Assembly (NCBI GenBank): GCA_951406725.2
Contig: OX597822.1
Location: forward strand, 74,648,001 to 74,712,000
Length of the DNA stretch: 64,000 nt
Reading direction: 5' to 3'
From: Octopus vulgaris
Taxonomy: Eukaryota
Shown here piece by piece: positions 1 to 49,639 of this stretch. Both the position numbers and the translations under genes were made by a program. The first letter of the stretch is position 1. Each line of letters begins with the position of its first letter. The notes under the pieces are model-generated. The model made no database searches. It was not told the DNA's origin and was given only the letters and a program-made list of their open reading frames with translations.

Positions 1-1549
1 TGTCCCCACCAACATCACTTGATAACCGATGCTGGTGTATTTACGTCCCCAATAACTTAGCGATTCGGCAAAAGAAACCGATAGAATAAGTACTAGGCTT
101 ACAAAGAAGTCCTGGGGTTGATTTGCTCGACTAAAGGCAGTGCTCCAGCATGGCCAGTCAAATGACTAAAACAAGTATAAGAGAGTAAAAGAGAAGTGGT
201 TGTATGCTAGAATATGTGAGGTTAAAGTATGACAGAGGACAAGAACAGGTGTCTTGTGGTGGGGGAAGTACATGGTCACCACTCCATTTGGAAAAGAAAC
301 AGGATGGTGGAGAAGATGTGTCAGAGTAAAATATATAAAAGGGTCACATGTTGATAAGATAAAAAAAATATGGAAAATAAATTACTGCTCAAAATTTATC
401 TTCTGCTGATTAAAAATAATTTGCTATAGTCATTCTGTTTTACTCAATCTAATAACTAATTCTCACCATGTGTTATGCTCTGAATATGCTTAGATGACTA
501 AGTGGATTTGGTCACAGCTACTGATCATGACAATGATGGTAATAACAACAATGGAGTTACTGACCTGTGGAAATTACTGGTATCAAATCAAATTCCCATT
601 CATAATGAAATGGGCAGCAAAGGACATTTCAGTTTTTCCCTCATTTTGTTTACACAATGATACATCTGAGAGATAAACAAAAAACAACAGATATAACAGT
701 TTCAAATTTTGGTACGAGGCCAGCAATTTTGTGGAGAGGGGCTAAGTCAATAATTACATCAACCCCAGTGTCTGACTGCTACTTATTTTATCGATTCCTA
801 AATGATGAAAAGCACAGTTGATCTAGGTGGTGTTTCAAATTAGAATGTAAAGAACTGGAAGAAATGCTGCCAGCATTTTGTGTGCCAATGATTCTGCTAG
901 CTCATCACATTAATAATTTATTTATCATTTCAAGCCTAGCCAGGCTCATGGGCCCGGTTTCTGTGGCGTATGTGTTCCCCCCCAGCTGGACGAGACACCA
1001 GTCCATCGCAGCGTTACTCAAAAAACAGGAAGAAAGAGTGAAAGTTGGGGTGAAAGAGTAGAATAGGGGTTGCCACCACCCACTGCCGGAGCCTCATGGA
1101 GCTTTTAGGTGTTTTTGCTCAATAAACACACACAACGCCCGATCTGGGAATCGAAACCATGATCCTCCAATCGAGAGTCTGCTGCCCTAACTACTAGGCT
1201 ATTGCGCTCCCATCACATTAATTACAGATATGATAGAATACAGATAAAAAGGGAACATGATGGATTAGAGAAAATGACATTTACATAGATCAGTTGCAGG
1301 ACCAAACCCCTCAAATAATGGAGCTAGCACTGAGGAAAAGGGTGTCCTACATCAATACAGAAACATAGCTATCTCAGATGGGAGAGAGAGAGAGAGAGCA
1401 AATAGGAATGCTGAAAGTGATAGAGAGGAAGATAGGGGGAATGAAAGACAGTGACAGAGGTTAAGAGAGCAAGAGAAACACAGATCACAAAGAAGAAAGA
1501 GGAGTGAGAGAGGAAGAGGGAGAGGTTTATAATAAGTATATCTGTAATA

Positions 1550-1822
1550 CAGTTCTACGCCATATACCTACGGGCATATGGGGTAGTGGTTAAGAGCGCG
1601 GGCTACTAGCCCCAAGATTCCGAGTTCAATTCTAGGCAGTGACCTGAATAATAATAATGATAATAATAATAACAACAACAACATTGAAAAATACATTAGG
1701 AATGAGAACCCAGGTTCAAAATTTCAACAAGACACCTGATGAAGGTTGGAGGGTATATCAGCCGAAATGTTGTGTTAACAACAAACAAGATGAGGACAAA
1801 TATCTGTCAAATGTACATAATG
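1550..1822 (+). mobile_element. tRNA(Arg)-derived SINE with 3' hammerhead motif, copy 1
   Basis: A/B boxes, (AAT)n/(AAC)n linker, CTGATGA..GAAA at 1736-1767; TSD TATAT(C/T)TGTAATA at 1537-1549 and 1823-1835. Confidence 0.85.
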
Positions 1823-3770: not shown

Positions 3771-6695
3771 CTCACCCATTATAACATATAAGTGATGAAG
3801 ATCATAACATTGCCCTGAATGGGATACCAGTTTGTTTTGAGGGGAGGGAGACAAGTTGACTATATCACTCCCAAATTTCTTGGTACTTGATTGTTTGGTA
3901 CTTTATTTTATCGACCCTTGAGATATTAAAGGTAAAGTTGATTTTGGCAAGATTTGAACTCAAAACGTAATTTTAAAAAATGGTGCTTAGGTGTGGCAAG
4001 AAGTTTTCTTCCCAACCACATGGTCCTGGGTTCAGTCCCACTGCATAGCACTTTGGTTAAGTGTCTTCTACTATAGTCTCAGGTCAATCAAAGCCTTGTG
4101 AGTGAACTTAGTAGACGGAAACTGAAAGACACACATGCATAGATATATGTACATATACACGACAAGCTTCTTTCAGTTTTCGTCTACCGAATCCATTCAC
4201 AAGGCTTTGGTTAGCCCCAAAATATATTTATGCTTCATCCATAACTGTTAGTCTGACAAAATATATTTTGTTTCACTCATGGTTCTTCAGGATTTTATTC
4301 ACTCTCAGACTTATTTTTGAGTACATTATTCTAAGTGGCTTCTTTTGAACTTGTTACCTCAAGAAAACATCAGGCATGGCTGTGTGGTAAGAAGCTTGCT
4401 TCCCAGTGACATGGTTCCAGGTTCAGTCCCACTGCATGGCACCTTGGGCAAGTGTCTCCCACAATAACCTTGGGCTAACCAAAGCCTTGTGAATGGATTT
4501 GGTAGACGGAAACTGAAAGAAGCTTGTCGTGTATATGTACATATATCTATGTATGTGTGTCTTTGTTTGTCCCCCAACACACCTGCGCCATCGCTTGACA
4601 ACTAATGTTGATGTGTTTATGTCCCCGAAAGCGGTTCAGCAACATAGACCAATAGAATAAGTACTAGGCTTACAATGAATAAGTCCCGGGTCGATTTCTT
4701 CGACCAAAGGCGGTACTCTCGCATGGCTGCAGTCAAATGACTGAAGCATGTAAAAGAGTATACATGCACACACATAGATATACATGCATGGTTCTATGGT
4801 TAAGAAGTTTGCTTTCCAATCATGTGATTCTGGCTTCAGTACCATTGTATGAAGCCCTGGTCCAGTGTCTTCAGCTATAGCCCCAGATTGACCAAAGACA
4901 TGAGTGGAATTGGTAGACGGAAAGTGAAAGAAGCACATCGTATATATGTGTGACGTTTGTTTCCAATCCTCCATGAAAACATGTTTAGCTATGTGGAAAT
5001 ATCACTTTGCTTAGAAAAACAAGATAGAGTTGGCAACAGAACGGCTTGAAAACCTGCTTCCACAAAATCCGTCTGATCAATACAAACATGGAAAAGTGGA
5101 CGTTAAAACAACGACGATGACTATAATCACAAACACAACTTGTATTATTATTAAGTCCAGTTTTCAATGACTAAGTTGGATACATACTTATTTGAAGTGG
5201 TATTTTAGGATCGGATGCTTTCCCTGTTATCGCCCTTGACCTGTGTGTCAAGTAAGGGGATTCTTTTTTATTTCTAAAGCACTGAGCTACAGAACATAAT
5301 ATTTATTCACTGGCAATATAAACCTGCCAGCACTGTTTTGAGAAGGAAACCTTCGTTCACGACAGAAAACTACCATGGCAGTAATTGTGACGAGCGATTT
5401 GAAGGAACTATAGGGGTTTGAAACTGTTCAGATGACAGTTAATGCGCATCGAGTAGAACTGTGTCGAAAAATGAAGTTCGCTCGGATTTCAAGTCGAAAG
5501 GGGAAGAAAGAGATATGCGAACAGAATGAGTCAAAGAGAGAATGAATGAGCAGAAGATGGAGAAAGAAAAAGAAAGCAAAAAAGATCCCATAATTTTATT
5601 CTGTAATTCTAAATTTAAAAATAAACACAAAATGTATTGCATTCGTGTTCTTAAGATCTTTCGCTTCGTGGATTAGGAGAGATTATTTATACAACTTGCG
5701 AAAATGCCCAATTCAGGCCATATTTTGCAGTGTGTGTGTGTGTGTGTGTATGCGTGCGTGCGTGTGTCAACAGGGCTGATTATGAAATCTTAATTACTCT
5801 CGATAAGAGAATATTTTTGGTTTATAGAAGAGAAAGCTAGAATATGTTGTGATGCCCGTACCTCACCAGCCACAAAGACATTAACGACATAAAATGTCCC
5901 ACGGTGAAGTGGAGTGGATTAGGATCCAGGTCGAGAATCGAAACTGACAAGTAGTCTCAACTTGCTGGTAATTTTATCTCTTACATCAAGTAACTGCTTA
6001 ATATACCCACCCCATATAAAGTGGAATCGGTTGCCATGGGAAGGAGGCTGCCTGTTACAAAGATGAGTAATCAAAAAGTGAACTTTGTATTTAATAGCGG
6101 AGGAATATTAAAAACGAAACACTCGTTAAATATGCAGAAAGCAAAAGATTTAATGGCTCGGCGCTTTTATGCATTTCAGAGTCAGAATTTAGAAATATGT
6201 ATTTTGGACATAGGAACAACTTGAACGAGGAGAAACATGTAATTCTAAATGGAATCAACAATAACGAGAAGGAAGAAAATAAAATAGAAAAAATAATAAA
6301 AACCATAAAGACAACCGACATGGTCAGAAGTGAAAGTTACAATGTATTGTACCGGTGTCTGAAATTGATTAACAATATAATTACGATCACAACATACACA
6401 CACGCACATACACATATAGATGTGGACAGATACACATACACACAAACAGCCGCACTAATTAGTAAATAGCAACAAGACTCAAGATTAAGTCACACACATA
6501 CGCATGTATAAATACAATAGTGGCTTTTTACTATGATCGTATGATCGATCGAGCAAATTTATATATTATATATTTAAACAAGATCGATACACACACACAC
6601 ATATATATTATTCAACACATACACAATGTGCTTTGCTTGTTCGCCATATACATTACACATACATGTGCGTATATAATGTTTATCTTCTAACAGAA

Positions 6696-29017: not shown

Positions 29018-29080
29018 GTAAATAACTAATTTCTATGTTTCCAACATAACATGGGTGTTTTGTTAGAACACCAGATACTG

Positions 29081-29191
29081 CAGTTCTATATTTAAGAGCA
29101 TATGGCGTAGTGGTTAAGAGCGCGGGCTACTAACCCCAAGATTCCGAGTTCGATTCCAGGCAGTGACCTGAATAATAATAATAATAATAAT

Positions 29192-29235
<44 letters not shown>

Positions 29236-29400
29236 TAATAACAACAACAACATCGAAAAATACCTTAGGAATAAGAACCCAGGTTTGAAATTTCCCCAAG
29301 ACACCTGATGAAGGCTGGAGGGTATATCAGCCGAAACATTGTGTTAACAACAAACAAGATGAGGACAAATATTGCTGAATGTAAATAATGTAAATAATGT
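29081..29400 (+). mobile_element. tRNA(Arg)-derived SINE with 3' hammerhead motif, copy 2
   Basis: A box TGGCGTAGTGG (29103), B box GAGTTCGATTCC (29146); TSD ACCAGATACTG at 29070 and 29401. Confidence 0.88.
29301..29344 (+). ncRNA. Minimal type I hammerhead ribozyme motif within SINE (also 1732-1775 and 49080-49120)
   Basis: ACAC-CTGATGA-A-GGCTG/loop/CAGCC-GAAA-C(G)TT-GTGT: stems I and II pair, core intact; each copy has a stem III lesion. Confidence 0.7.
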
Positions 29401-29989
29401 ACCAGATACTGCGTTATTAGCTTTGAGAGATTGTCTCATATAGGTGCATGCTGCGTAAAAGCATTGACATATATTGTGGGTGGGAATCATCTGCTATGGG
29501 TGCCGGAACTTACTTATCATGTGATTTCAGCCTGCAGTCACTGGATGCCTCTCATTGATGAGGTCTTGCAGACTGAAATCATAAGAGATGAGAGCTTTGG
29601 TATATGTGCAAATGTGTGTATGTGTGTAACAACTGTATGTTTCTTAGGTATGGAACTCCACTACTGTATAATCATTTTATGTTAAAAATCATAGCTGTTT
29701 ATTTATTCATAAATTATACATTTGCTTTAAAATTTAGATTTAATTCGTGAACTAATCTAGGAATAATGAATATATGCTGTTAAGCAAACATATATTTCCA
29801 TATATAGTAATTATATGAAAAAGAATTCCAAAGATGAAGTTTTAATGATAATTGATTTTGGAAATTAATTTAAGAAAAAATAAAAGAAAGAAAAATATAA
29901 ATTATAGAAACAACATCAATAGATTTTTTAATAAAAACAAATACTAAAATTATGTTTTTAATAGTGGTTTTGTTTTGAAATTTTGGAAG

Positions 29990-48525: not shown

Positions 48526-48863
48526 GTAAGTGTGAACACATCCACACTTGCCAAAAGGCCACTTCCAAGTGCTACACTTGATAAAAAATATATTTATAGA
48601 TAAAACAAATAACAGTGATTTCAAATTTTGGCACAAAGCCACCAATTTGGGGGAAGGTAGCACATTGATTATAGCAATCCCAATCCTCATCCAATACTTG
48701 TCTTATTGACCCAAAAGGGATGAAAGGTGTAGTTGGCCTCAATAGAACTTGACCTAAGAACTTGAAGATGGATGTATTATAACTCTACCACTTATTTTTT
48801 TACTCTGCCTGCTAAAAATTCCACCAACTCGCTGCCTTAATTGAGCAAATAATATTAATAGTA

Positions 48864-48991
48864 CAGTTCTATATTTAAGAGATGAGGAATTATGTACATT
48901 ATTTACATTCGACAGACAAATGGTGTTGTGGTTAAGAGCACGGGCTACTAACCACGAGATTCTGAGTTCGATTCCAAGCAGTGACATGAAC

Positions 48992-49029
<38 letters not shown>

Positions 49030-49167
49030 CATCGAAAAATGTCTTAGGAATGAGAACCCAGGTTCGAAATTTCCCCAAGACACCTGATGAAGGCTGGAGG
49101 GTATATCAGCTGAAACGTGTTAACAACAAACAAGATGAGGACAAATATCTGTAAAATGTAAATAATG
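48864..49167 (+). mobile_element. tRNA(Arg)-derived SINE with 3' hammerhead motif, copy 3
   Basis: Perfect 13-bp TSD AATATTAATAGTA (48851 and 49168); about 57-nt inverted terminal segment at the 5' junction. Confidence 0.88.
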
Positions 49168-49639
49168 AATATTAATAGTATTATAAAATGTTTCCTGTTA
49201 ACATTCCTCTCTCTATATATCTTACCCTAAAAATATACACTGATCTTGAAACTAAATTAATCTTCTATATTGACAACTTTATCAAATAATCATAAGTATT
49301 TGATCCACTTGTAATCTTTTTAGTTATGAAAATATAGTATTTAATTTGGGTTTACAAGAACAAGGTTTTATTCAAACTATTAATAATATATCTGATTATA
49401 TATATATATATATGTATTTGTATATATACTAGTAGAGATAACCGGCATTGCTCAGGATTGAAATGGCATTGTTTCTTTTATTGTTGTACTTGATTCGGTC
49501 ATGTGACTGTGGACATACTGGAGCACCGCCTTTAGTTGAAGAAATCGACTGAGGAAAGAAAACTCTGAATGACCCATCCTTGTTTTCCTTGTATCGTCTA
49601 TCTGGATGTTTTGTGTTCTTGTCCCATTTTGTATATATA

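Follow-up and report, generated by a model that had tools for sequence, protein, structure and literature searches.

An octopus repeat with a hammerhead-like core and an inverted leader reads as a solo terminal repeat of a Penelope-like element

Three copies of the element and their inverted leaders

The window, i.e. the whole stretch of 64,000 nt of Octopus vulgaris DNA analysed here (contig OX597822.1, positions 74,648,001 to 74,712,000 of the forward strand), holds three copies of one element, all on the plus strand, the pattern of its core giving three matches for zero expected. The features of these copies are compiled in Table 1, together with the parts of the unit, whose positions are counted on a natural full copy of 266 nt (L017:1498-1763). 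The body of the unit ends at a site named S and the tail that follows it at a site named T.

Table 1. Features of the three copies (window coordinates) and parts of the unit (unit positions); pLTR, pseudo-LTR
Feature	Position	Strand	Evidence or remark
Copy 1, left target-site duplication TATATCTGTAATA	1537..1549	.	13 nt; right copy 1823-1835 with 1 mismatch (93%); duplication score 11
Copy 1, inverted arm CAGTTCTA, outermost 8 nt of tail	1550..1557	-	
Copy 1, inverted pLTR head fragment	1555..1568	-	fold-back with 1573-1586; shares CTA with the 8-nt tail piece
Copy 1, direct full-length pLTR arm	1572..1822	+	tail-less end ACATAATG
Copy 2, left target-site duplication ACCAGATACTGC	29070..29081	.	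exact 12-nt repeat at 29401-29412
Copy 2, inverted arm CAGTTCTATATTTAAGAG, outermost 18 nt of tail	29081..29098	-	identical to the first 18 nt of the copy 3 leader
Copy 2, direct pLTR arm	29099..29400	+	tail-less end after one extra TAAATAATG unit
Copy 3, left target-site duplication AATATTAATAGTA	48851..48863	.	exact 13-nt repeat at 49168-49180; duplication score 13
Copy 3, inverted pLTR arm, 5′-truncated at unit position 214	48864..48916	-	alignment to unit positions 214-266
Copy 3, inverted arm, part: 33-nt tail	48864-48896	-	
Copy 3, inverted arm, part: last 20 nt of pLTR body	48897-48916	-	
Copy 3, direct full-length pLTR arm: head, (AAT)n run, body	48917..49167	+	tail-less end GTAAATAATG
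Copy 3, hammerhead-like core (GACAC CTGATGA A GGCTG..CAGCT GAAACGTGTTAAC), short variant	49079..49125	+	pattern match 49084-49110
Copy 3, right target-site duplication	49168..49180	.	exact repeat of 48851-48863
Unit, head	1-76		
Unit, (AAT)n run	77-95		
Unit, body	96-233		ends GTAAATAATG = site S
Unit, tail, 33 nt past site S	to 266		ends TAGAACTG = site T

In all three copies, the 8-mer CAGTTCTA directly adjoins the left target-site duplication of 12-13 bp, as had been noticed in a sequence-only reading of this DNA. The leaders that begin with it are, as that reading also held, of variable length (8, 18 and 53 nt in copies 1, 2 and 3, respectively); the figure of about 57 nt once given for copy 3 is too high, since the minus-strand alignment of its inverted arm covers unit positions 214-266, and the six bases at 48917-48922 already belong to the direct head. 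This alignment has 96% identity and an E value of 8.6e-15. Reverse-complemented, the leader of copy 3 gives the final 20 nt of the element followed by a 33-nt extension, and the claim that it overlaps and extends the 3′ tail is thereby borne out; the inverted repeat itself pairs 48892-48916 with 49148-49172. In the direct arm, the head aligns with unit positions 4-76 and the body with 96-233. The final C of the left duplication of copy 2 (29081) is common to duplication and leader. Copy 1 does contain the fold-back of its own head reported in the same reading, 14 nt long, 86% complementary and with a 4-nt spacer between 1555-1568 and 1573-1586. Taken alone, the 8-mer CAGTTCTA is not significant (four occurrences in the window for 2.4 expected, with 24 of 100 shuffles reaching four); beyond chance are its placement right at the duplication in three copies of three and the collinear extension in copies 2 and 3.

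A solo pseudo-LTR with a 33-nt tail

With copy 3 as query, the genome yields at least 3465 candidate places, many with a direct copy followed by the 33 nt and many others with two copies in head-to-head arrangement. The unit of ~233 nt stands both 3′ and 5′ of the coding region of a Penelope-like element (PLE), and the 33-nt tail continues collinearly into the PLE 5′ part and its open reading frame. Because the unit is collinear with the PLE on both sides of the coding region, with a frame open through the tail, it reads as the pseudo-LTR (pLTR) of that PLE. The element is best described, from these alignments, as a solo pLTR, a better name than SINE. The 33-nt extension corresponds in the aligned copies to the first 33 nt of PLE internal sequence and not to the end of an RNA, so that the 'extended 3′ terminus' of the sequence-only reading has to be given up in that sense; it is the 'tail' of the PLE literature, and its outer boundary would be a second internal start site of reverse transcription (RT) on the RNA. 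The element is a new family of an already known PLE-type structure. No paper describing the octopus family was found in the literature on PLE-mobilised SINEs, cephalopod SINEs and solo pLTRs.

Several variants of the unit were observed. The length of the (AAT)n run differs greatly among copies (L014, L016, L024, L028 and C9:74452963-74453326 of the same genome, R9 4963-5326), reaching well over 100 nt, and in one copy a long (GAA)n run replaces it. Two unrelated copies, R4 136879-137134 (C4) and L015, have the same 9-nt deletion at the S/T boundary (AAATAAT|TCCTCATC), and L003 has a different internal deletion of the tail. At L188 (C7), a short derivative lacks the coding region: repeat and tail are followed by ~430 nt from the PLE 5′ part and then by another repeat. 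It is possibly a non-autonomous form other than the solo repeat.

The autonomous Penelope-like partner

Coding sequence lies directly upstream of the unit head in three loci, with the RT motif YVDDTFILW and a GIY-YIG-type C-terminal motif (CVYSIPCSCGRLYKGETCRPLKIRVEEHRKAV); in L002 and L017, the reading frames for RT (YVDDTFILW) and endonuclease (CVYSIPCSCGRLYKGETCRPLKIRVEEHRKAV) stand directly 5′ of the unit. With the partner coding DNA as query, the unit head is met at most ~10 nt past the coding end in 18 of 20 loci, the query's own locus being one of the 20. Pfam RVT_1 scores 37.9 bits (cut-off 29.6) on the open reading frame piece L108:2112-2621; on L113 its score is 25.2 bits. Among the 29 homologues of the endonuclease piece, 12 are annotated with RVT_1; the Pfam accessions PF26215 and PF28514 are listed for these homologues as well. 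The C-terminal motif VYSIPCSCGRLYKGET..L..R..EH is present in the partner. Pfam calls no GIY-YIG domain on the endonuclease piece of the partner family itself; by BLASTP, this piece matches the Pfam-certified GIY-YIG stretch of the L077 reading frame (E = 1e-4), in which Pfam recognizes both RVT_1 and GIY-YIG. The homologue P0017 (847 aa) aligns with the same L077 frame, from the same genome, over RT and thumb (E = 4e-47); the alignment takes in the start of GIY-YIG, and the match to the GIY-YIG stretch has E = 0.006. A PDB sequence search with P0017 returned only group II intron-like RTs (E = 0.0036). Collectively, the coding motifs and alignments mark the autonomous partner as a PLE.

At its other end, the PLE bears the unit as well. 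In 12 of 19 loci with the PLE 5′ part, the unit runs from upstream of position 221 collinearly through 266 into that part. A near-complete unit precedes the PLE 5′ part in L192, where it starts at unit position 4 after unrelated flank, and in L197, but there PLE coding sequence precedes the unit. In L192 the open frame leaves the unit, crosses the tail and spans ~174 codons. Starting from an ATG near unit position 113, an uninterrupted reading frame crosses the hammerhead-like core, site S and the 33-nt tail before it enters the PLE, and S and T lie ~120 and ~153 nt past this in-frame ATG. All PLE copies examined are broken, with a longest open reading frame of 305 aa, and the start of the frame within the repeat is therefore read from fragments. 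On this basis, the unit likely holds the beginning of the PLE reading frame.

The most abundant PLE of the same genome, with open frames of 781 aa, was also considered as partner and rejected, as it shares nothing with the unit at E <= 0.01. Its open frames occur at many places (e.g. L077 and L082 on C16) with the same Pfam score, which suggests that its copies are near-identical and possibly young. The 3′ region of L077 contains repeats of ~100 nt with TGATGACGTC.

Hammerhead-like core and tRNA-like head

The core of the unit exists in two variants. The long one (GACAC-CUGAUGA-A-GGCUG...CAGCC-GAA-ACGU-U/GUGUU) fits the features published for the minimal hammerhead of metazoan PLEs, which in the available text of PMC4209133 include an extra base between 9 and 10.1, a G10.1-C11.1 pair and a palindromic ACGU in place of helix III. 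In the short variant, to which copy 3 belongs, 3 nt are missing at the predicted cleavage site, and a G occupies the cleavage position (position 17). Typing 90 arms with a loose pattern gave 37 long, 38 short (minus 3 nt) and 15 untypable ones. The loss of 3 nt is in frame and thus fits a coding constraint. A type III hammerhead, with helix III CAACAU/AUGUUG and a long helix I hairpin, was tried and set aside: seven extra bases would lie between the would-be cleavage site and helix I, and the published minimal type I form fits better. The hammerhead is a putative one, its long variant fitting the features in the accessible part of PMC4209133.

Searches with covariance models and tRNA finders give no support to either structure. 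At gathering threshold, Rfam has no match in the whole window. Relaxing the limit to E <= 10 for 48800-49250 brings up only two chance rows of snoRNA type, and a search of 17 loci at E <= 1 yields miRNA rows driven by microsatellites and nothing else; neither search reports a hammerhead or a tRNA. ARAGORN finds no tRNA gene in the whole window. A tRNA origin of the head is supported by no tool, and the head resembles a tRNA only by eye. The name 'hammerhead-SINE' used in the sequence-only reading is replaced here by that of solo pLTR, since neither ARAGORN nor Rfam detects a tRNA in the regions just listed and the element is collinear with the PLE repeat.

Architecture of the insertions in a genome sample

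The architecture was examined in a sample of 1.064 Mb taken regardless of content, made of 464 kb surrounding the window plus three blocks of 200 kb from other contigs. It contains 30 clusters, of which 20 are two-armed, the rest being fragments, single arms and complex arrangements. The view that each insertion begins with an inverted leader is correct for the three copies in the window and too strong for the genome, given the 20 of 30. The density of two-armed units in the sample is ~20 per Mb. All 20 are arranged minus-then-plus, head to head with the 3′ ends outward, and no tail-to-tail pair occurs among them; tandem-like arrangements were seen only twice (R9 418377 and L012). As in the three copies in the window, arms vary in length and duplications lie outside the whole unit. 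The duplications that bracket the pair are 9-16 bp long. A duplication score of >=9 is reached by 13 of the 20 units versus 8 of 380 mismatched pairings, and a score of >=11 by nine units versus none of the 380; in seven of the 20 units no convincing duplication is seen.

Arms ending at T range from 8 nt to full length, and those ending at S do likewise. In the usual pair, one arm extends as far as unit position 1-8 and its partner is truncated, and at the inner junction the arms overlap by 0-8 nt. Which arm bears the tail is not fixed, the tail standing on the longer arm in many units. The outer ends obey a stricter rule. In all 19 scorable pairs of the sample they are unlike, one T and one S, an outcome with a probability of ~2e-6 if the two sites were chosen independently. 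Three further, non-random sets of loci gave T/S in 18 of 20 typed pairs after inspection, bringing the count to 37 of 39, where independent choice would give about half. The two exceptions are L007 (S/S), in which no duplication was found, and L015 (T/T), which lies in a nested region. Of the 20 units, 15 have the tail-bearing arm at the lower coordinate (left), as do 12 of the 15 around the window, perhaps by chance or through a local orientation bias.

The DNA copies are ~15% diverged from one another, and the identity within a pair (0.852) equals that between pairs (0.854), with partners ranking anywhere from 2 to 88 of 89; hence identity cannot tell one template from two. The alleles of the 3-nt indel of the core differ between the arms of one unit in four of 13 scorable pairs, or five of 14 with one added later. 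A duplication surrounds the whole unit in all four unlike-allele pairs checked (149144, L003, L025 and L027), and also, on our reading, in the fifth (R12 132257). The indel sits in a slippage-prone GTTGTG context, and the search for a second marker linked to it gave only CpG sites, with weak association. These unlike alleles within one unit would suggest two RNA templates per event, recurrent slippage being the alternative. An unequal reach of the arms was observed at R4 115375-116107 (C4), which looks like a single insertion with the duplication ATCCCATTTCTT / ACCCCATTACTT (two mismatches): the T arm stops exactly at unit position 1, and the S arm continues for another 196 nt into coding sequence of the PLE, so that the templates of the arms, or their stops, differed in length.

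The two outer ends, S and T

The motif at the T end has 79 matches, 22 of which continue into the PLE 5′ part and 57 of which are true ends. T ends are sharp. Contigs of four public sequencing runs that fit from 48864 onward have unrelated letters before this position, in agreement with the sharp T end of many copies. In the same four runs, very many contig pieces correspond to the window regions 48582-48675 and 49475-49568 beside copy 3, which are probably further high-copy repeats. S ends are ragged, with one or two extra TAAATAATG units in 23 of 71. At T, the first letters of TATTATC, the next bases of the RNA, are matched by the flanking DNA (TA at least) in 34 of 57 ends versus 8.5% of 20000 random positions; units 91757 and 95001 are different, the stretch common to target and element at T being CAGTT. 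At S, flanks begin with TA, like the tail, in 25 of 71 ends versus 9.3% of random positions. Both sites have the sequence context UG|UA. In addition, S lies within an 8-nt palindrome (ATGTACAT), and UCCUCAUCU of the tail is complementary to AGAUGAGGA, 35 nt upstream of S. Folding of the last 168 nt shows an overall stability that is not unusual (z-score -0.38), with a AGAUGAGG/CCUCAUCU stem present in the MFE and centroid folds.

Mechanism and competing explanations

The leader is probably the outer end of an inverted, 5′-truncated copy of the pLTR, and the pair of arms likely results from a single integration primed on both strands. The PLE protein would nick both target strands, and both 3′ ends would prime reverse transcription at internal sites of the RNA, which is the simplest view and the one that published work suggests (PMC11167929). 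S and T, as deduced from the DNA copies, would be these two start sites, the 3′ end of one nicked strand starting at S and that of the other at T, often helped by a few bases of homology, with UA following both sites. The two cDNAs would then join by their inner ends through 0-8 nt of microhomology, each being completed on the other. Short leaders, such as those of 8, 18 or 53 nt, would represent cDNAs primed at T whose synthesis ended early. For the unit's defined 5′ end, a transcription start within the repeat could be responsible, and solo units may be made from any RNA that starts there, be it a PLE transcript or a solo-unit transcript. The suggestion that the inverted leader is a fingerprint of PLE-type priming gains support, as a PLE partner was found and the whole unit is collinear with its terminal repeat; that inverted terminal repeats are typical of PLE insertions agrees with PMC11167929 and with the available parts of PMC3846280 and PMC8557442.

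Alternatively, the element could be a genuine SINE of tRNA origin whose own head drives transcription by polymerase III and whose 3′ end is shared with a PLE, with unit-bearing PLE copies having acquired the unit secondarily. Its sharp 5′ end would be accounted for in this way (~20 arms of the sample end at unit positions 1-8 and only three enter PLE coding sequence), as would head motifs looking by eye like A and B boxes (TAGTGGTTAAGAG; GAGTTCGATTCCAGG) and the fact that solo units are far commoner in the sample than PLE internal sequence. A SINE is nonetheless unlikely in view of the absence of a tRNA by ARAGORN in the window and by Rfam around copy 3 (E <= 10) and in 17 loci (E <= 1), of the whole unit, from position 1-4 to S/T, being found on both sides of the PLE coding region, of the likely start of the PLE reading frame within the unit, and of L192, where the 5′ repeat of the PLE begins at unit position 4 after unrelated flank. 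Transcription of solo units on their own is compatible with integration by both-strand priming. Self-priming, in which one cDNA folds back on itself at the head and serves as its own template for an inverted arm, is the process favoured for such palindromes in the accessible text of PMC3846280. Head-to-head junctions with short spacers or overlaps recall it, and pure head fold-backs do exist (copy 1, L008, R4 178707 and R1 63911). As a general account it is improbable: it predicts outer ends of the same type and does not fit because 37 of 39 pairs have unlike ends, it predicts identical arms where the 3-nt indel differs in four of 13 scorable pairs and one later pair, and many arms are truncated far from the head. 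Self-priming may apply to the pure head fold-backs and perhaps to the middle segment of copy 1.

Two explanations concern the history of the pair. Short leaders might be remnants of full arms, one of the two having been trimmed by later deletions in an unstable palindrome. Copy 1, where 8 nt of tail are followed by inverted head, has the appearance of a complete inverted arm from which an internal piece between two CTA triplets was lost, and internal deletions of the tail recur (R4 136879, L015 and L003). Yet the short arms of copies 2 and 3 and of unit 91757 are unbroken from T and adjoin the direct arm exactly at unit positions 1-4, a deletion would need to end at the symmetry centre every time, and S arms truncated at 96-139 adjoin full T arms with microhomology, all of which makes trimming very improbable as a rule. 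Later deletion may hold for copy 1, and not for short arms that adjoin the direct arm at its first bases. We give hardly any credence to two separate insertions, a second copy homing in opposite orientation into the 5′ end of an older one, even though nicking by the PLE ribonucleoprotein has been reported both within its own pLTR and in other AT-rich DNA (PMC11167929), and nested insertions do occur (L015). Duplications surround the whole pair in 13 of 20 units, and also in the four checked units with unlike alleles; tail-to-tail pairs are absent from the sample; and the equal identity within and between pairs (0.852 versus 0.854) gives no sign of unequal age.

Both-strand priming at two internal sites may have a stricter form. 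Integration could be obligately asymmetric, with the nicked strands priming on two RNAs at two fixed sites 33 nt apart, leaving one tail per unit; this is conceivable, although we incline against it. It is proposed because 37 of 39 pairs have unlike ends and five of 14 scorable pairs have different indel alleles. If true, the choice of start site would be coupled to the strand or to the order of cleavage, a coupling that published in vitro work did not see.

Significance

The structure is a known hallmark of PLEs and calls for no new mechanism. It does illustrate a trap for annotation, in that a very abundant 'SINE with a hammerhead' is the solo terminal repeat of a PLE, with an apparent 5′ leader that is part of the same insertion. 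The octopus genome also contains two-armed solo-repeat insertions with readable ends in such number that they form a very large natural sample, from which rules of PLE integration can be set. Three are apparent: one tail per unit, short homology at both start sites, and arms that may stem from different RNAs. The one-tail and start-site-homology rules differ from the report on the only in vitro system. What goes beyond the cited papers, namely the nearly absolute one-tail rule and the indel differences within units, is of modest mechanistic value, as is the microhomology at both start sites.

Comparison with known systems

The hammerhead-like core shares with the minimal hammerhead of metazoan PLEs the CUGAUGA core, GAAA and a 5-bp open helix I (GACAC/GUGUU), as given in the available text of PMC4209133; it differs in that about half of the arms lack 3 nt, which places a G at the cleavage position, and in having no match in Rfam. 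Non-LTR retrozymes, according to the accessible part of 10.64898/2026.07.22.740005, are likewise short non-autonomous hammerhead sequences from PLE pLTRs. They are defined there by tandem arrays and circular RNAs, whereas the octopus units, known here from DNA alone, are dispersed, flanked by duplications and arranged head to head.

The published signature of PLE insertions combines an inverted pLTR, an optional tail at one end and a duplication (PMC11167929 and the available parts of PMC3846280 and PMC8557442); the last of these describes an inverted 5′-truncated copy and a tail of 30-40 bp, often on one end only. Penelope/Poseidon, Pen2a of Adineta vaga and Naiad resemble the octopus family in all these respects, as far as the accessible parts of PMC3846280 and PMC8557442 go: an inverted 5′-truncated copy adjoins a direct one, an extension of 30-40 bp is found at one end only, duplications surround the whole unit, the repeat contains the hammerhead, a putative one in octopus, and the start of the open reading frame, and solo repeats occur. 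The octopus family differs from them by a solo repeat that is by far its commonest form, by the (AAT)n run and by a head resembling a tRNA by eye. The one-tail rule was counted here (37 of 39), and in the available text on endonuclease-containing PLEs it is worded as 'often' or 'optionally'.

The nearest experimental parallel is the PLE of the anole, Poseidon PAc. Its purified protein cleaves and extends both strands; two neighbouring internal sites, 111-118 nt into the open reading frame, are where RT begins, and the tail is the stretch that separates them. In vitro, the start site showed no difference between top strand and bottom strand and no homology to the cleaved DNA (PMC11167929). The octopus family similarly has two adjacent sites, ~110-120 nt into the open reading frame in both systems, with the tail in between (PMC11167929). 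Cutting and extension of both strands, proposed for octopus, a hammerhead, putative in octopus, overlapping the start of the open reading frame and an AT-rich target are further common traits. Unlike PAc in vitro, the genomic copies of octopus have unlike ends in nearly every pair and a TA(TT) match at 60% of T ends.

In LINE-1 twin priming, the second nicked strand also primes on the RNA, the second primer annealing at random internal places, and this is a minority outcome. In both systems the cDNAs join by microhomology, and an inverted 5′ part lies inside one duplication. The octopus family departs from LINE-1 by its two proposed fixed start sites 33 nt apart and by a two-armed form that is the majority (20 of 30 clusters).
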